40,238 nt of DNA from Candidatus Omnitrophota bacterium (GTDB lineage: Bacteria; Omnitrophota; Gorgyraeia; JAGLLT01), in assembly GCA_023140385.1 (NCBI GenBank), contig JAGLLT010000044.1, forward strand, positions 1-40,238, in the 5' to 3' direction. Positions 21,556-34,350 of the stretch are shown piece after piece; within the stretch, counting starts at the first letter, position 1, and each line of letters starts with the position of its first letter. The position numbers and the translations under genes are program-made. The notes below the pieces were generated by a model. It saw nothing but the letters and a program-made list of their open reading frames with translations. It searched no databases and was not told the DNA's origin.

Positions 21556-24330
21556 TTAAGCCAATTCCTCTAAGTCTTTTTTCAAACTTTGCCGGCGAAT
21601 TTCAAATTCAACCTTCTTTTTTTTCATTTGTTCAATAGCTTTTTCGGGAGCCTTGTTCAAAAACCCTTTATTTTTAAGGTGGTTATCGGTCTTTAAAATT
21701 TCCTCATTTATTTTTTCTATCTCTTTTTTAAGCCTGGCACGCTCTATGCCAAAATCTTTCAACCCGCCTTCTATATATATAGACGCGCTCATAGCGGCTA
21801 CTTTTGACCCGACAGCTTCTTTTATTACTTCTTTTGACGGTACAATAAGTTCAACTTTAAGATGTGTTAGTTTTTCAACGTATTTTTTATACGTATTTAA
21901 TAAGTCTATTAAACCGGGATGGTTTGTTGAAATCCGAACCGTATGTTTTACGCGAAACTTTAAGCCTTCATTTCTTATTTTTAATACAATTTCTTTAATA
22001 CTGTCAAACTGCTCTCCGGCCGCCTCGCTAATCAGCTTCTTATCGGCCCCGGGCCAGGAACTTGTGGTAATGAGCTCCTCTTCTTTAGCCGGTAATTTCT
22101 GCCAAATCTCTTCCGTAATAAAAGGAACGTAGGGATGCAAAAGCTTCAGTATGGTTTTCAGGCAAACAAGAAGCACGCTCTGAGTAACCTCATCCTTAAT
22201 GTCTATCTTGGCTATCTCTATGTACCAGTCGCAAAACTTATGCCGGAAGAAGTCATAAAGCTTGCTGGCTGCTTCATAAAAACGGTACGCTCCAAAGGCT
22301 TCGTCAATATCCAGGATAAGCTGATTTAATTCACTTATAATCCACTTCTCAGCCAAATAAGAATCACCATCAGCTAATAATTTCTCTATATCTTTAAAAG
22401 AGATGTCTTGAGGTTTATTCTCTTCCAGATTCATAATAATAAAGCGAGACGCGTTCCAGATTTTATTCATCAGGTTCCTGCCAAACTCAAATTTATTTTC
22501 AGACAGATATAAATCCTCACCCGGTATAGAAATCAGGCTAAACCTGAGAGCATCCGCCCCATACTTTTCAATAACTTCCAGCGGGTCAATGGCATTACCC
22601 AGAGACTTACTCATCTTTCTTCCTTTATCGTCGCGGACGGTTCCATGAATATAAACGTCACTAAAAGGAATCTTCCCCATAAATTTAAGCCCCGACATTA
22701 TCATACGGGCAACCCAGAAAAATATAATCTCAGAAGCGGTAATCAAGCAAGAAGTAGGATAAAAATACTCTAAATCAGCATTCAGCACTTTTTTTTCTGC
22801 TGATGGCTGATGGCTGATGGCTGATGGCTCATTAAACGGCCAGCCAAAAACGGCAAACGGCCAGAGCCACGAACTAAACCATGTGTCAAGCACATCAGGA
22901 TCCTGAAATATCTCCTGAGACCCGCAATCAGGACACTTTCGCGGCTTATCCAAACCTACATGAATAATTCCGGTTTCTTTGTCTGATATCTCTAAAGGAA
23001 GTTTCAGTCTTTGAGCATGCCTGTTTTTTAAGTACTTATCATAACAATTTTTACAATACCAAACAGGTATTCTGTGACCCCACCATATCTGGCGCGATAT
23101 GCACCAGTCTCTTATATTTTCCATCCAGTTGACATAAATCTTATGCCAGCGCCTGGGATAAAAATTGATATTGCCCTTTTCTACCTCCTCAAGCGCCTTC
23201 CCGGACAGGGGCTTCATTCTCACAAACCACTGCTCGGAAAAGTAAGGCTCAATTACCGTATGACACCTGTAACAGTGCCCCACTGAATGCGTATGCGGCT
23301 CTATCTTTTCAAGCAGTTTTCTTTCTTTTAACTCCTCAATCAGAGCCTCTCTGGCTTCAAAGCGGTCCATGCCATCATAATTTTCCGTCGCGTTAGCGTT
23401 CATAGTGCCGTCGGGATTAATGCAAAGAATGCCATCCAGCTTATGGCGGTTACCCATCTCGTAATCATTGGGATCGTGAAAAGGTGTAACCTTAACTACC
23501 CCCGTCCCAAACTCAGGATCCACAAAATCATCGGCAATTATCTCAAGTTCTCTTTCAGCAATAGGCAGAATAACTTTTTTTCCTATTAAAGCCTTATACC
23601 TCTTATCATTCGGATTAACAGCTAACGCCGTATCTCCAAACATAGTTTCAGGCCGCGTAGTAGCAACTACAACATAGTCTGGTTTCTGGTTTCCGGTTTC
23701 TGGTTTCTTTCTCAATGGGTACCTAATGTAATAAAGATTTCCCTGTACTTCTTTATGCGGCGCTTCTTCATCGCTTAAGGCGCTTTGGCATCTGGGGCAC
23801 CAGTTAATAATATAGCTCCCTTTATAAATAAGGCCTTCATTATAAAGCCTCACAAAAACCTCATTAACCGCCTCAGAGTAGCCTTCATCAAGCGTAAAAC
23901 GCTCTCTCTCCCAATCACAGCTTGAGCCCATCTTTTTTAACTGCTCAATAATCTTTCCGCCGTTCTTACCGGTCCACTCCCACATCCTTTCAACAAACTT
24001 CTCGCGCCCCAGCTCATACCTCGTCTTCTTCTCCTTAGCGAGGTCTCTCTCCACCACGTTCTGCGTAGCAATACCCGCGTGGTCAGTACCGGGCACCCAT
24101 AAAGAGTTATATCCCTTCATTCTCTTATAACGGATTAGTATATCCTGGAGGGTATTGTTCAGGGCATGCCCCATATGAAGAATGCCGGTAACGTTGGGAG
24201 GAGGGATAACTATACAGTAAGGATCTTTATTGGGTGAACTTTCAGTATGAAAACAACCTTTTTCATTCCATATCTTAAACCACTTATCCTCAACATCCTT
24301 TGGAGTATATCTTGTCGAAAGATTTTCCAT
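21556..24330 (-). CDS. valS: Valine--tRNA ligase
   Basis: PPPNVTGILHMGH, GTDHAGIATQ, DWCISRQIWWGH and KMSKS motifs, plus the C-terminal coiled coil. Confidence 0.98.
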   Translation of the reverse strand: MENLSTRYTPKDVEDKWFKIWNEKGCFHTESSPNKDPYCIVIPPPNVTGILHMGHALNNTLQDILIRYKRMKGYNSLWVPGTDHAGIATQNVVERDLAKEKKTRYELGREKFVERMWEWTGKNGGKIIEQLKKMGSSCDWERERFTLDEGYSEAVNEVFVRLYNEGLIYKGSYIINWCPRCQSALSDEEAPHKEVQGNLYYIRYPLRKKPETGNQKPDYVVVATTRPETMFGDTALAVNPNDKRYKALIGKKVILPIAERELEIIADDFVDPEFGTGVVKVTPFHDPNDYEMGNRHKLDGILCINPDGTMNANATENYDGMDRFEAREALIEELKERKLLEKIEPHTHSVGHCYRCHTVIEPYFSEQWFVRMKPLSGKALEEVEKGNINFYPRRWHKIYVNWMENIRDWCISRQIWWGHRIPVWYCKNCYDKYLKNRHAQRLKLPLEISDKETGIIHVGLDKPRKCPDCGSQEIFQDPDVLDTWFSSWLWPFAVFGWPFNEPSAISHQPSAEKKVLNADLEYFYPTSCLITASEIIFFWVARMIMSGLKFMGKIPFSDVYIHGTVRDDKGRKMSKSLGNAIDPLEVIEKYGADALRFSLISIPGEDLYLSENKFEFGRNLMNKIWNASRFIIMNLEENKPQDISFKDIEKLLADGDSYLAEKWIISELNQLILDIDEAFGAYRFYEAASKLYDFFRHKFCDWYIEIAKIDIKDEVTQSVLLVCLKTILKLLHPYVPFITEEIWQKLPAKEEELITTSSWPGADKKLISEAAGEQFDSIKEIVLKIRNEGLKFRVKHTVRISTNHPGLIDLLNTYKKYVEKLTHLKVELIVPSKEVIKEAVGSKVAAMSASIYIEGGLKDFGIERARLKKEIEKINEEILKTDNHLKNKGFLNKAPEKAIEQMKKKKVEFEIRRQSLKKDLEELA
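22799..22829. repeat. (GCTGATG)4 heptamer tandem repeat inside valS
   Basis: Read directly; encodes EPSAISHQPSA. Confidence 0.9.
23678..23707. repeat. (TCYGGTT)4 heptamer tandem repeat inside valS
   Basis: Read directly; encodes KPETGNQKPD. Confidence 0.9.
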
Positions 24331-24359
24331 CGCGTCTTATTTTTCCTAAATAGTTTTTC

Positions 24360-24509
24360 TTAAGTAGATTGTGTCAAGTGCGCATGGTGCCGCGCCATAG
24401 CAATCTGTTCTCCAATGCAAAGATTTTGATATTCCTCATCAAACCTCTCGCGGAATTCTTTATCTTCCATTAGCTTGTCCATATAAGTTTTAGCTTTTCT
24501 CTTTTTCAT
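24360..24509 (-). pseudogene. Truncated HigA/XRE-type antitoxin
   Basis: MKKRKAKTYMDKLMEDKEFRERFDEEYQNLCIGEQIAMARHHAHLTQST*, stopping at the start of the HTH (LTQ). Confidence 0.7.
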
Positions 24510-24515
24510 AGACAG

Positions 24516-24638
24516 TCACTTATAATCAAGATCGCTTTCTTCAAGCCTCTTGCCCTCCTCCTCGTAGTGTCTTTTAAATTCTTTGTCTTTAAGTTCCCCC
24601 TTTAAGACATCTTTAAAATCTAAAAGCTTCCTAATCAC
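24516..24638 (-). pseudogene. Second truncated HigA-like antitoxin N-terminus
   Basis: GGAGG RBS and GTG start; MIRKLLDFKDVLKGELKDKEFKRHYEEEGKRLEESDLDYK*; shares the DKEF...EE motif with the neighbouring fragment. Confidence 0.6.
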
Positions 24639-24671
24639 TACAAACACCTCCCACAGTTCAAATTTACCCTG

Positions 24672-24746
24672 CTAATACCGCAGAATAAAGTCTTCCATAT
24701 TTTTCTTCGCCTGTTCAATCTCCCTCTCGGGCAATTCTTTCCGTCT
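24672..24746 (-). pseudogene. C-terminal fragment of a HigB/RelE (Gp49-like) toxin
   Basis: RRKELPEREIEQAKKNMEDFILRY*, resembling the KTxxxPxxEIxxAxxxxxD C-terminus; lies just upstream of the antitoxin fragment. Confidence 0.6.
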
Positions 24747-24751
24747 TCGGT

Positions 24752-24822
24752 GTTTGTGAAATTTTGCAAAGTAAAATTTGGGTGAGTGCCATTAAGCACG
24801 AACTTTTTATGCTATATTATGT
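24752..24822 (-). mobile_element. Degenerate attC (5' half only; R'' mutated to ACATAAT)
   Basis: ACATAAT-ATAGCATA parallels GTATAAC-ACAGCATA of the attC at 26116-26207; internal hairpins present; L'/R' missing. Confidence 0.6.
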
Positions 24823-24840
24823 GAAGTGATGCAAAAAAAA

Positions 24841-25263
24841 TCAGTCAACTATTTTTAATATCCTATAATTTGAAAATTTCAGCTTGGTGTTCTTGTACTC
24901 TAAGTCCCTCCTCATTTCTAATACCAACTCACCAAGCATATTTTTGGCAGTATTTTGATCATCAGGGTGTCCTTGTTCATTAGAATGGATAAACTCATCT
25001 AAAAGTTTATTAGCTTTAAGAACAACGCTATCAGAAGCGTAGAGCCAAGATTCTGATAATTCATTTAGAAAAAGCTGTTTATCCTTTTTATTGGCAGTAC
25101 CTTCCATGAAACCTTTCAAATAACGCAAAAGGTTTTGGTATTTTTCTCTCTTCCTTTCAAAAATTCTAGTTTCCCGCTCAGCCCTTTTCTCTAACCAGCT
25201 CTTGATAAAATAGCCACTAACACCACCAAAAATTAAGTAAATCAGGTTGCCAATGTTTTCCAT
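24841..25263 (-). CDS. Gene-cassette ORF: N-terminal TM plus helical domain, unknown function
   Basis: AT-rich, lies between attC sites; WLYASDSVV and ELVLEMRRDL motifs. Confidence 0.85.
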   Translation of the reverse strand: MENIGNLIYLIFGGVSGYFIKSWLEKRAERETRIFERKREKYQNLLRYLKGFMEGTANKKDKQLFLNELSESWLYASDSVVLKANKLLDEFIHSNEQGHPDDQNTAKNMLGELVLEMRRDLEYKNTKLKFSNYRILKIVD

Positions 25264-25305
25264 ATTTTACCCCATTTTGAGCAGATAATTTTTTTGCAAC
25301 ATTTC

Positions 25306-25385
25306 ATATAACGAAATGCAAAATTGCGAAGCGAAGCAATTTAGATACGCGACAATAAGAGCAAATCGCATATTCGCTGTTATAC
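25306..25385 (-). mobile_element. attC-like integron recombination site (80 bp)
   Basis: Minus strand GTATAAC-AGCGAATATGC...GCATTTC-GTTATAT, with internal hairpin AAATTGC-TTCGCTTC-GCAATTT. Confidence 0.75.
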
Positions 25386-25426
25386 AACCATAGCCCACCA
25401 TCTTTGAAACATACATCGCACTTCTT

Positions 25427-26095
25427 TTATTCTATATTACTTTTTCCAAGGTTGCATTTTTGGCACAGTGTTTGAAGATTTTCAAGTATAGTTTCTCCAC
25501 CCTTACTCCAAGGTTTTATATGGTCAACATGCAGTTCCACATTTTTATCTTTTGCAGGACTCACACCACATTGTTTACATGAAAAATTATCTCTTTTGAG
25601 GACCTTAAATCGTAAACGCAAAGATGGATCTCTATTTATTTTCTTTATACTATCCGAAATTTGAGGTGTTTCTATGTTTTGAATATCAGTTCCATTTGCA
25701 TATTTAACAAAAGATAGTAGTGTATATGACCAAGATTTGAACCGCCGGTTATATGGACTTTGAGAAATTTTTGAGGGCTTAAAATTCAAATCTTTTCGAA
25801 TAGGTTGTTTACCTTTATATTGCCAAATGTTTAATATGTTTTCAAATAATTCTTCGTCTGAATAATTAAAAATATTTCCTGGTTTCAAACCAACTTTTGA
25901 TAGTGCTTCTCTCCATGTCCCAAAACGTCTAGAGAAACTTGTAACATCATATTTTCCATATTCTAAATAAAGTTTTTGAGATAGAATATCTGTACCAAGT
26001 TTTTCTGCAACCTTTTTTAAATCATATAGCAACTTATCTGATTCAATTGGTGTATTTTTCGGTGGTGTGTATTCAAAATTATTCATATTTACCAC
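25427..26095 (-). CDS. HNH endonuclease with N-terminal homing-endonuclease-associated repeats (cassette ORF)
   Basis: RRFGTWREAL and RRFKSW repeats; LRFKVLKRDNFSCKQCG...LHVDHIKPWSKGG...NLQTLCQKCNLGKS. Confidence 0.92.
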   Translation of the reverse strand: MVNMNNFEYTPPKNTPIESDKLLYDLKKVAEKLGTDILSQKLYLEYGKYDVTSFSRRFGTWREALSKVGLKPGNIFNYSDEELFENILNIWQYKGKQPIRKDLNFKPSKISQSPYNRRFKSWSYTLLSFVKYANGTDIQNIETPQISDSIKKINRDPSLRLRFKVLKRDNFSCKQCGVSPAKDKNVELHVDHIKPWSKGGETILENLQTLCQKCNLGKSNIE

Positions 26096-26115
26096 TATTA
26101 TTTAGACAGTATGTT

Positions 26116-26207
26116 ATATAACATTCCCAGCATATGCAATGTGCGACCGAAGGGAGCATATCTCGAAGGGCAAGGGCAAAGCCCGTAGCGCATATGCTGT
26201 GTTATAC
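26116..26207 (-). mobile_element. attC integron recombination site (92 bp)
   Basis: Minus strand GTATAAC-ACAGCATATGC...GCATATGCTG-GGAAT-GTTATAT: R''/L''/L'/R' boxes with a palindromic core. Confidence 0.85.
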
Positions 26208-26235
26208 GCTGGTGCTGACTCTTCGTTATGCTCTC

Positions 26236-26679
26236 CTATTGTTTCCGGCCAACCAGATGCACTTTAGGAAAGAATCTATTTATATTTTTCCCCTTCCCAA
26301 AGAGATCTTGTCTCATTTCTTTTACAAGTTCAGTAAGTAAATCATCGTGTTTCCTTGTCCATTCTTCAGAATCTCGTGGAATAACAACATTCTCCATCTT
26401 TACAAAGTTATGAAACTCCATTAGTTTACTAACTACATTAGCATTTGCCATAAGAAGTAACGAGTTAAATCCTTCTGAAAGACTTTTTTGAGCATCATCA
26501 TCTTTATTATCAATAGCTACATCACTTAGTGCTTTGATAAATAATCTGTAAAATTCTTCTTTTAGCCTACACTCTTCCCGCTTTAATTGGTGCTTTTTAG
26601 TAAAATAATATGATAATGAAGCCGTGATTGCTGAAGCCAGTAATCCAATACTTGCTACGATAATTTCCGATAAATCCAT
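26236..26679 (-). CDS. Gene-cassette ORF: N-terminal TM plus helical domain, homologous to 24841-25263
   Basis: LLMANANVV and ELVKEMRQDL motifs; lies between attC sites. Confidence 0.85.
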   Translation of the reverse strand: MDLSEIIVASIGLLASAITASLSYYFTKKHQLKREECRLKEEFYRLFIKALSDVAIDNKDDDAQKSLSEGFNSLLLMANANVVSKLMEFHNFVKMENVVIPRDSEEWTRKHDDLLTELVKEMRQDLFGKGKNINRFFPKVHLVGRKQ

Positions 26680-26707
26680 TTTTCACCCTATTTTTGCTGG
26701 CACTTGC

Positions 26708-26771
26708 GTATAACTTAAAATAACCGAACTGCTTCGTTCATGCTTCCAAATCGGCACTTTTTGCGAAGCAA
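26708..26771 (-). mobile_element. 3' half of an attC site (R' GTTATAC)
   Basis: Minus strand TTGCTTCGCAA...CGAAGCAGTTCGGTTATTTTAA-GTTATAC, 28 bp before the cassette ATG. Confidence 0.6.
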
Positions 26772-26946
26772 TTCCTCTATTCCTAACTATATCTAAGTTT
26801 AGTCTTACCTTTCCGCTAACATCTCAGCCGCTTCCTTTATATCTTCTTGAAATATCCACTTTCGCTAAAAACTTCGACTGATAGGTATTCGTATAACATC
26901 TTAATATTCTCGTCACATCTACATATCTTAGATTTGTTTTGCGAGC

Positions 26947-27291
26947 TTAGCTTAAATCTTCCTTTATTTTTAAAATCTTAGCTTTTAAATCAACCATATC
27001 TTCTTTGACAACTTTCAGGGTTCGTTTTAGATTTACTCCAAAGTATTCATGGATAAGGATGTCCCGCATACCCGCAATTTGCTTCCATGGTACCCCTGGA
27101 TATTGATCTCGGAACTCATGGGGAATGTTTTTGACAGCCTCGCCAATAATTTCTAAGCGTCTTAAAATAGCATCCTGAATTAGAGTATTGTTATAAAAAT
27201 CGTCCTCGTTATTAAATCCCTTCATATACTCTTCTATCTTTACAATGGCCTCTAATATATCTTCAATATACACTCGTACATCTCTTTTCAT
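26947..27291 (-). CDS. hepT: HepT-like HEPN ribonuclease toxin (DUF86)
   Basis: [23 protein letters not shown] and [13 protein letters not shown] (RX4HXY) motifs. Confidence 0.92.
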
Positions 27292-27575
27292 AAAAGCACC
27301 ACCTGTTCTTTGAGAATCCTTTCCTTAAGAAGGGGTTTGAGGGTGTCGTATTCTACTAAATCTACTTTCCGTCCCAGGGCCTCTTCGATTTTTTGTTTAA
27401 GCCCTACAAAACCAAGCAGGCTGATATCTGCCCTGATATCTATTAAGATATCAACATCACTCTCCTCTTTCATCTCACCCCGAACACAAGAGCCAAAAAG
27501 GGCTACTTTTTTAACTTCATAATCTTGCAGAATAGGAAGAATCTTTTGTTTTATTCCTTCAATATTTTCCGTCAT
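27288..27575 (-). CDS. mntA: MntA-like minimal nucleotidyltransferase antitoxin
   Basis: LFGSCVRGE...SDVDILID (GSX10DXD) and LGRKVDLV motifs; overlaps hepT. Confidence 0.92.
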
Positions 27576-29158
27576 AGCTTTTTTCCGTCCTTCAACAATT
27601 TATATTCAATACTATCAACCAGAGCTTGCCAGCTGGCTTCGATTATATTTCCTGAAACGCCTACTGTTGACCAGAGCTCCTCTTCGTCCTGCGATTGGAT
27701 AAGAACTCTTACTTTGGCGGCTGTGCCTGCTTTTTGATCGAGTACCCTTACCTTGAAATCTGCCAGGTGCATCTTCTTCAGGCTTGGATAAAAATCCTCT
27801 AGAGCTTTTCTTAAAGCGTTATCCAGGGCATTAATCGGGCCGTCGCCTTCGGCAGCCGTGTGCTCCATAATGCCGTTTACCTTAAGCTTAATAGTCGCCT
27901 CAGAGTAGAGTTGGGGCATCTTTGTTTTAGGGTCAATCCTTTTTTCATTGATAACCCGAAAGCCCTCTAATTCAAAAAACTTCTTGGACTTTTTCATCAT
28001 CCGCTTCATCAACAGTTCAAAAGAGGCTTCGCCGGCTTCAAAATGATAGCCTTCATTCTCCATATCCTGAAGCTGTTCTAATATCTTTTTTGTCTGGGGA
28101 GTATCTTTATCTAAATCAATATTAAGCTCCTTAGCCTTCATCAGAATACTACTCCTGCCGGCCCACTCAGAAATTAAAAATCTTCTTTTATTGCCCACCT
28201 CTTCAGGCTTTATGTGTTCGTAGGATGTCGGGTTTTTCATAACGGCATTAACATGCACACCTCCCTTATGGGCAAAGGCGCTCAAGCCGACGTAGGGTTG
28301 ATTGCCGCTCTGCTTCATATTACTTACTTCGCTTACGTAATGAGAAACCTCGGTTAACTCCTTTAATTTTTTGGGCGATAGGCAGTTAAGGCCTAACTTC
28401 AACTGCAATGTCGGAATAATCACACACAGATCGGCATTACCACATCGCTCCCCGCAGCCGTTAATCGTCCCCTGAACCTGAGTACAGCCGGCCTCAACAG
28501 CCGCGACAGAATTAGCCGCCGCCATTCCGATATCATTGTGTGTATGAATGCCTAAATTTATTTTTATCTCTTTTTTTACGGCTTTGACAATAGCAGAAAT
28601 TTCAGAGGTCAAACTCCCGCCGTTAGTATCACATAAAATAATCCCCTCTGCTCCGGCATCCTGAGCGGCCGTGAGAACCTTAAGCGCGTAGCCCGCGTTG
28701 TCCTTGTAACCATCAAAAAAGTGTTCCGCGTCAAAAAATACCTTCCGGCCCTTTTTCCTAAGATACCTGATACTTTCATCAACCATCTTCAGGTTCTCTT
28801 CCAGCGAAACTTTAAGAATGTCTTTCACCTGCAGAACCCAACTTTTTCCGAAAACGGTAATGTACTCCGTACCCGCTTTCAATAAAGCCTGGAGATTTTT
28901 ATCCTTATGGGCCTTGATATGACGGCGTCTGGTCGAGCCAAAAGCTACCAGCTTCGTCTTACCTAATTTTAAAGCCCCCGCTGTTTTAAAAAAAGTTAAG
29001 TCTTTCGGATTTGAGCCCGGCCACCCGCCTTCAACAAAGTGCACCCCTAACTCAGCCAGCTTTTTAACAATCTGCACCTTATCCCCGACAGAATAACTAA
29101 CCCCTTCCGCCTGAGCGCCGTCTCTTAAAGTCGTATCATATACTTTAATATGGGTCAT
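27572..29158 (-). CDS. cimA: Citramalate synthase (CimA, LeuA family)
   Basis: YDTTLRDGAQAEG, EGGWPGSNPKD, DAEHFFDGY, AFAHKGGVH and NIIEASWQAL motifs. Start placed at ATG 29158 after GGGGGAG. Confidence 0.92.
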   Translation of the reverse strand: MTHIKVYDTTLRDGAQAEGVSYSVGDKVQIVKKLAELGVHFVEGGWPGSNPKDLTFFKTAGALKLGKTKLVAFGSTRRRHIKAHKDKNLQALLKAGTEYITVFGKSWVLQVKDILKVSLEENLKMVDESIRYLRKKGRKVFFDAEHFFDGYKDNAGYALKVLTAAQDAGAEGIILCDTNGGSLTSEISAIVKAVKKEIKINLGIHTHNDIGMAAANSVAAVEAGCTQVQGTINGCGERCGNADLCVIIPTLQLKLGLNCLSPKKLKELTEVSHYVSEVSNMKQSGNQPYVGLSAFAHKGGVHVNAVMKNPTSYEHIKPEEVGNKRRFLISEWAGRSSILMKAKELNIDLDKDTPQTKKILEQLQDMENEGYHFEAGEASFELLMKRMMKKSKKFFELEGFRVINEKRIDPKTKMPQLYSEATIKLKVNGIMEHTAAEGDGPINALDNALRKALEDFYPSLKKMHLADFKVRVLDQKAGTAAKVRVLIQSQDEEELWSTVGVSGNIIEASWQALVDSIEYKLLKDGKKL

Positions 29159-29222
29159 AATCACTCCCCCTATTCGTATTGTCAAAAGTATTTACCCTTT
29201 ATACGTTTAAAAAACTCTAAAC

Positions 29223-34272: not shown

Positions 34273-34350
34273 TGGTCGGGGCGACTGGATTCGAACCAGC
34301 GACCTCTTGAACCCCATTCAAGTGCGCTAGCCAAGCTGCGCTACGCCCCG
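34273..34350 (-). tRNA. tRNA-Pro(GGG)
   Basis: CGGGGCGTAGCGCAGCTTGGCTAGCGCACTTGAATGGGGTTCAAGAGGTCGCTGGTTCGAATCCAGTCGCCCCGACCA: cloverleaf, anticodon GGG, encoded CCA. Confidence 0.97.

Follow-up and report, generated by a model that had tools for sequence, protein, structure and literature searches.

A probable orphan array of integron-like gene cassettes with asymmetric-loop hairpin sites between cimA and valS of a Candidatus Omnitrophota genome

The insertion between cimA and valS

The window (the whole stretch of 40,238 nucleotides analysed here) is one contig (C39) of a 1.50-Mb Candidatus Omnitrophota genome (G000) that is assembled in 57 contigs and is 92.7% complete. On its minus strand, a cimA-like gene with HMGL-like and LeuA dimer domains (27572–29185) forms the upstream flank of a 3241-bp (3.2-kb) insert, and valS, with the tRNA-synt_1 and Val_tRNA-synt_C domains (21556–24330), forms the downstream flank. 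Every element of the insert lies on the minus strand: an MntA/HepT-type toxin-antitoxin pair, three AT-rich open reading frames (ORFs) and gene fragments. The pair (26947–27575; PF18765/PF01909 and PF01934 above cut-off) carries no hairpin site of its own, and its start overlaps the cimA stop; it does not stand between cimA and valS in relatives. The fragments (24345–24761), recognized in translation, have a single weak database match, to a PHROG transcriptional regulator (E 9e-4); by eye, they resemble the C-terminus of a toxin and the N-termini of two antitoxins from bacterial toxin-antitoxin pairs. The region 26790–26920 also looked by eye like a second, decayed HepT gene, a reading that was dropped (tblastn E 0.67).

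The insert is absent from all relatives with a readable junction (6/6, a count that leaves out G001, in which neither gene was found, and G002). In these genomes cimA and valS adjoin, with a spacing of 8–9 nt in three members of the same family and from an overlap to 114 nt in three others of the class. This comparison, proposed as a check in an earlier sequence-only reading of the window, speaks in favour of mobility. The assembly of the locus is reproduced without any difference by contigs of two runs (X1 and X3), from which this DNA may come. Among the contigs of four runs, in which rare variants are dropped, neither a joint nor a circular cassette appeared. Scans for promoters and terminators stayed at the level expected by chance (7 versus 11.0 and 2 versus 2.1, respectively), and an Rfam search of the window returned nothing but one tRNA. 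A tRNA gene is located at 34276–34350 on the minus strand.

The common orientation and AT-richness of the three ORFs, noted in the same reading, were confirmed: all lie on the minus strand, with GC contents of 0.33 (26236–26679), 0.31 (25427–26095) and 0.34 (24841–25263), a range of 0.31–0.34 compared to 0.41 for the genome. The first ORF codes for a 147-aa protein of an unnamed family with a hydrophobic N-terminus, for which no Pfam or PADLOC family was found; its Atlas look-alikes are all hypothetical proteins, and seven relatives were identified in genomes and metagenomes. The second encodes an HNH endonuclease with two homing-endonuclease-associated repeats (PF18780, 70.5 bits; PF01844, 50.1 bits; both above cut-off), whose PADLOC matches to type II REases are limited to the HNH domain. 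The third codes for a 140-aa protein for which no close homologue was found; a pairwise identity of 29% over 127 aa (E 1e-4) makes it probably a distant relative of the first. The two proteins appear to be distant members of the same unnamed family, which comprises many Atlas clusters and has no Pfam counterpart. The cargo (an HNH nuclease, two small membrane-anchored proteins and toxin-antitoxin pieces) suggests defence or addiction functions.

The first ORF and the hairpin downstream of it form a 592-bp unit (cassette 1, 26122–26713, minus strand) with a related copy in a metagenome contig (L026). The two share 82% DNA identity over 603 nt. The identity starts at G/TTATAC, spans the gene and the whole downstream site, and stops at GTTATA; the L026 copy has different neighbours on both sides. 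Hence, gene and downstream site travel together, with the crossover at G/TT as in integrons. Cassette 2 (810 bp, 25312–26121, minus strand) is bounded by the two hairpins described below as sites A and B, and a 328-nt contig of run X3 carries a relative of its 5' part that continues into a different upstream junction. The ends are complementary at 13/16 in cassette 1 and at 9/16 in cassette 2; those of cassette 3, which holds the third ORF, are complementary over 23 nt at 87%. The genes are shown to be cassettes, each with its own downstream hairpin and exchanged at G/TT. The proposal of a decaying array of mobile one-gene cassettes in a variable interval, far from any integrase gene, has stood.

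Hairpin sites with an offset loop

Site A (26116–26207, minus strand) is an intact hairpin of what we term the offset type, as assigned by its register and by two covariance models (R2 and R3, below). It is composed of GTATAAC, 1 nt, an 11-bp stem, 5 nt and GTTATAT, with the core CAGCATATGC/GCATATGCTG; the 1:5 asymmetric loop is followed by an unbroken stem, and the L box has no extrahelical base. The L026 relative has the same register and one compensatory G-C to A-T change in the stem. No DNA match to site A was found in plasmids. Site B (25306–25385, minus strand) is of the offset type with a damaged right arm (21.7 bits with R2; 23.7 bits, E 0.0044, with R3). Both sites lie where the sequence-only reading had placed spacers bounded by GTATAAC...GTTATAT. 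Of these two spacers, described there as palindromic, site A forms a more stable fold than its shuffled versions (z −3.60 on the plus strand, 0/200 shuffles; z −2.16 on the minus strand), and site B does not (z −0.94 and −0.67).

A 5'-half site had also been suggested at 24752–24822, and a real part-site of the offset type is indeed present there (site C, 24762–24823, minus strand), matching a complete site in another genome of the phylum (G039, L119:10321–10372) at 45/53 nt. Its core has changed from AAC to AAT, and the right arm and GTT are lost; in sediment contigs the missing arm is present as loose ends at 24773–24775. With R3, site C is the third best match in the window (14.6 bits, E 0.48). 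The decay of sites B and C leaves at most the cassette boundary at site A usable now. At least two of the sites have AAC...GTT cores on the same strand, each after a single ORF, with no intI nearby. The insert contains two TATAAC..GTTATA pairs compared to a shuffle mean of 0.024, and two were reached in 0/2000 shuffles. The 7-mers of the sites differ from RYYYAAC/GTTRRRY at one position each.

In descriptions of canonical attC sites (PMC5027507, PMC7439510), each arm has 5–6 unpaired bases and L'' contains an extrahelical base. This base is at position 16, and a second one follows 6 bp further. Forced into the canonical register, sites A and B pair at 1/7 positions versus 6–7/7 in sites of two canonical arrays of the same genome (contigs C6 and C48). 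For a canonical model (R1), we took 30 sites that adjoin IntI genes in the same phylum; its structure was supported. R1 gives nothing at the window sites with filters off and E up to 10. The check by attC covariance model thus turned against reading the spacers as the attC sites of an IntI integron, as did the lack of an L-box register and of an extrahelical base.

For the offset type, we used a model based on 18 offset sites outside the window (R2) and a refined version (R3). Neither model was trained on the window; R2 gives site A 34.2 bits and R3 gives it 44.9. In G000, where 150 of 385 candidates were scored, R2 matched sites A and B only. Offset sites share an invariant AAC/GTT core and a fixed loop register, 1:5 and elsewhere also 1:4, with a continuous stem. 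Two-sided changes occur in 10 of the 11 stem pairs in an alignment fitted to the model. The models were trained partly on loci also used to test them. They replaced the first genome-wide palindrome scans, which were noisy and gave false positives at long, AT-rich intergenic repeats that are palindromic and contain TAAC/GTTA units (G000 C9:29528–29673, C21:34338–34488 and C7:45955–46070). A strict site pattern was too narrow for counting, G000 being its sole match in 301 genomes.

The head of the array

Upstream of cassette 1, the segment at 26708–26775 (minus strand) had been taken for a 3'-half site (26708–26771). Neither R1 nor R3 matches it at E up to 10, and we read it instead as the entry (attI-like) site of the array, in a variant of its own. 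Its last 37 nt, which end in GTTA, are matched in two other genomes, at 29, 29 and 23 of 37 positions in three copies of a same-family genome (G002) and at 31/37 in a genome of the same order (G007); the best match elsewhere in G000 is 24/37. The G002 copies stand at the head of genes in an offset-site array. The crossover would fall at G26714/T26713. Scored with a profile of 11 entry sites that adjoin short recombinases, the 26714 site ranked 8035 of 22031, with no nhmmer match. The earlier placement of the array end at 26897 did not hold up, since the GTTATAC there has no match with either hairpin model or with the entry-site profile. Entry-pattern matches in three genomes (G029, G090 and G154) were dropped, as no sites followed them where checked. 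In G002, a promoter-like block and the entry site occur three times in one offset array without a recombinase (C86, L121).

Canonical arrays and recombinases in the same genome

A genome-wide search for intI and related attC sites, also suggested in the sequence-only reading, recovered the sites on other contigs and no intI: R1 identified 12 canonical sites on contigs C6, C14, C38, C48 and C54. The array on C6 (22400–25226, L101) has three strong and one weak model matches and an attI-like head, and lies directly before pilZ-bamD. In a genome of the same genus (G001), the 3' end of an intI gene is located beside pilZ-bamD, in the exact place of this array, and contig C6 is continuous. The lineage has thus lost intI. 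Further canonical sites are at C38:21200–36000, C14:41700–42330, C48:24203–24263 and C54:353–417, several of them after toxin-antitoxin pairs, and copies of the C6 head sequence are also present on C38 and C4. The putative entry site of the window is unlike the C6 head. G000 therefore holds orphan arrays of both the canonical and the offset kind, unmixed.

The absence of a tyrosine recombinase from the 40-kb window, as previously noted, was confirmed, and no recombinase remnant was detected in 26680–26960 or 24331–24845. The genome encodes three tyrosine recombinases (XerD, XerC and a phage-type enzyme). A tblastn search of G000 with both IntI and I2-less enzymes recovered nothing beyond these three, and the best genome score with the IntI model TIGR02249 was 89 bits (cut-off, 265).

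Recombinases beside offset sites

One genome with a relative of cassette 1 (G314) encodes a 271-aa relative of IntI, and relatives of this enzyme are present in 22 of the 61 small genomes around it. These short IntI relatives lack the I2 insertion, with a catalytic Arg-His spacing of 91–92 versus 133, and score near NCBIfam NF040815 and below TIGR02249. In a tree of 29 recombinases, IntI formed one clade (99/100), and IntI and the I2-less enzymes together were separated from Xer only at 80/95.

A register scan identified 38 canonical and no offset sites in 16 IntI loci, and 10 offset sites and three weak canonical calls in 21 loci with short recombinases. R2 matched 11 of these 21 loci (six outside its training set) and none of 14 IntI loci; it found no site in the other 10 short-recombinase loci. 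In all 11 matched loci the offset sites are upstream of and divergent from the recombinase, in a fixed geometry of recombinase, entry site and array. R1 had no match in 20 offset loci, nor R3 in 21 canonical ones. Among 69 loci chosen by recombinase similarity alone, R3 matched five, R1 matched 18 and none was matched by both; all 10 of the R1-matched loci with a measurable enzyme show IntI-length spacing. Offset sites thus adjoin IntI relatives without the I2 insertion. The link between enzyme and site that these sequences suggest is one of association only.

Within the phylum, arrays with the 1:5 register occur in seven other genomes (G002, G006, G039, G055, G198, G232 and G377). Those of G198, G232 and G055 lie downstream of co-oriented recombinase genes that are broken and match I2-less enzymes best, for example that of a Chryseobacterium plasmid, and G039 has a broken copy of a short-type recombinase. 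None of the eight genomes with offset sites, G000 included, yielded an intact I2-less enzyme. Of 301 genomes of the phylum, 14 have IntI and a single one has the short enzyme, in broken form. Offset sites were found in at least 6 of 150 genomes of the class, a floor because 24 candidates were scored per genome and G000 itself was missed. The co-oriented I2-less recombinase genes observed before arrays of the phylum are all truncated or broken (L120:11201–11341, L137:1459–1665 and L235:6871–7251). A pattern scan of viral contigs gave five loci, with real offset sites in two. One phage contig (L035:406–4979) has about ten offset sites, with small genes on the strand opposite to the sites. An Acinetobacter plasmid (L233:5548–7563) carries a truncated recombinase with I2-less spacing before tet(X3), where neither site model matched.

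Interpretation and alternatives

Taken together, the locus probably represents an orphan array belonging to an integron-like system, parallel to classical integrons, that uses a recombinase of the I2-less type. As neither IntI nor an I2-less enzyme is encoded in the 92.7% complete assembly, we describe the array as orphan and decaying. An I2-less recombinase would have inserted the cassettes successively at the putative entry site (26714), newest first, and would have recognized folded single-stranded sites by their asymmetric loop and not by extrahelical bases. The enzyme gene may have been lost later, or the block may have arrived without it. The cassette genes are co-directional with the cimA-valS operon and would probably be read through from it. 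Several observations weigh against this reading: G000 contains neither a cognate recombinase nor a remnant of one, which makes the enzyme link indirect at this locus; none of the eight phylum genomes with offset sites yielded an intact enzyme; 10 of the 21 short-recombinase loci gave no site match; the entry site does not fit the profile from short-recombinase loci; and a relative of the cassette 1 protein precedes a canonical site in L027.

The most serious competing explanation, unlikely in our judgement, is that of a classical CALIN with unusual attC sites put at a secondary chromosomal site by the former IntI of the lineage. Such an enzyme is suggested by the G001 intI at pilZ-bamD, where G000 has a canonical array and attI-like head and no intI. 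IntI is also reported to insert cassettes at GWT sites across genomes (10.1101/2022.09.11.507474), IntI1 to recombine two short attC sites stripped of extrahelical bases (PMC5027507), and the crossover at G/TT is that of integrons. However, the spacer of site A is 1:5 instead of 5–6 per arm and the canonical model does not match it. Furthermore, IntI arrays contained no offset sites and offset arrays no canonical ones, and at the head of the window array lies a conserved putative entry site that differs from the canonical head on C6. A former IntI explains neither the lack of mixing nor the separate entry site. Slightly less likely again is that the host XerC/XerD handle the cassettes, as they do folded single-stranded phage DNA, the I2-less genes being passengers. 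Phylum genomes with offset arrays do keep XerC/XerD-like genes and no intact cognate enzyme, the entry modules of G002 are repeated without an enzyme, and Xer action on hairpin DNA has been described for CTX phage (PMC7790495). Against this stand the fixed geometry in 11/11 matched short-recombinase loci and the arrays downstream of co-oriented remnants; moreover, Xer is encoded in all genomes of the class, while an insensitive search found offset sites in few (at least 6/150).

The hairpins could also be REP- or MITE-like repeats or RNA stabilising elements, the insert then being a patchwork of horizontally acquired genes with no site-specific recombination involved. The presence of only one intact site and of toxin-antitoxin genes without sites would fit such a patchwork, which we nevertheless regard as highly improbable: the gene is transferred along with its downstream site, the border at G/TTATA is sharp, and the AAC/GTT core is invariant, the loop register fixed and the sites placed one per gene. 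An orphan array tied to I2-less recombinases remains our preferred reading.

We also favour, with somewhat less assurance, a broader proposal: that a second, widespread gene-capture system exists beside integrons, in which relatives of IntI lacking the I2 helix would recombine sites on folded single strands, marked by an asymmetric loop in place of extrahelical bases, and which may preserve the state from which IntI arose. The G000 chromosome would then keep the arrays of both systems apart, with their own entry sites and their enzymes lost. The occurrence of both kinds of arrays apart on one chromosome, each with its own entry site, would point to separate specificities with shared cargo. A relative of the cassette 1 protein in another locus (L027) precedes a canonical site beside an intI-like remnant, so that cargo moves between the two systems. 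The I2 helix has been held necessary for cassette capture and single-strand recombination (PMC7790495; for capture, also PMC3053210). An integron-like subgroup in which the I2 insertion is not fully conserved has been reported, with no sites described in the text available to us (PMC8138268). In the portions consulted, papers on archaeal (10.1101/2022.02.06.479319) and phage (PMC9892861) integrons contain no offset-type class. Our literature search, thin on subscription papers and excluding supplements, found no published description of offset sites with I2-less recombinases.

If the enzyme link holds, the system would be important; the window locus is a small, decaying, enzyme-less example of it. 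Cassette arrays tied to I2-less enzymes would change the account of integron origin and offer natural enzymes and sites that can be tested. Offset arrays may also be missed or misfiled by attC models. The locus itself adds a genome with both site classes unmixed and a probable new variant of the entry site.

Comparison with known systems

The array works like an integron array and is not filed as a classical CALIN. CALINs are common and are defined by matches to attC models (Cury et al. 2016, PMC4889954). As in the cassettes of classical integrons and CALINs described there, each cassette of the window carries one promoterless gene followed by an imperfect palindrome whose cores are AAC/GTT; further likenesses are the G/TT crossover, a putative entry site at the head, stacking on the same strand and absence of the integrase. 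In contrast to classical CALINs, the window sites have a loop of 1 + 5 nt instead of 5–6 per arm, lack the extrahelical base of the L box, have no canonical model match and are of a class whose associated enzymes lack the I2 insertion. The small size of the array and its position in a housekeeping region far from any integrase resemble the products of attG insertion, which gives SALINs and small CALINs (10.1101/2022.09.11.507474). Unlike these, its head is a conserved 37-nt putative entry site common to other genomes and not a bare GWT, and its sites are not canonical attC. Compared to the offset arrays that bear an enzyme, the window array has neither enzyme nor remnant, has its own entry-site variant, and shares its genome with classical CALINs with which it is unmixed.
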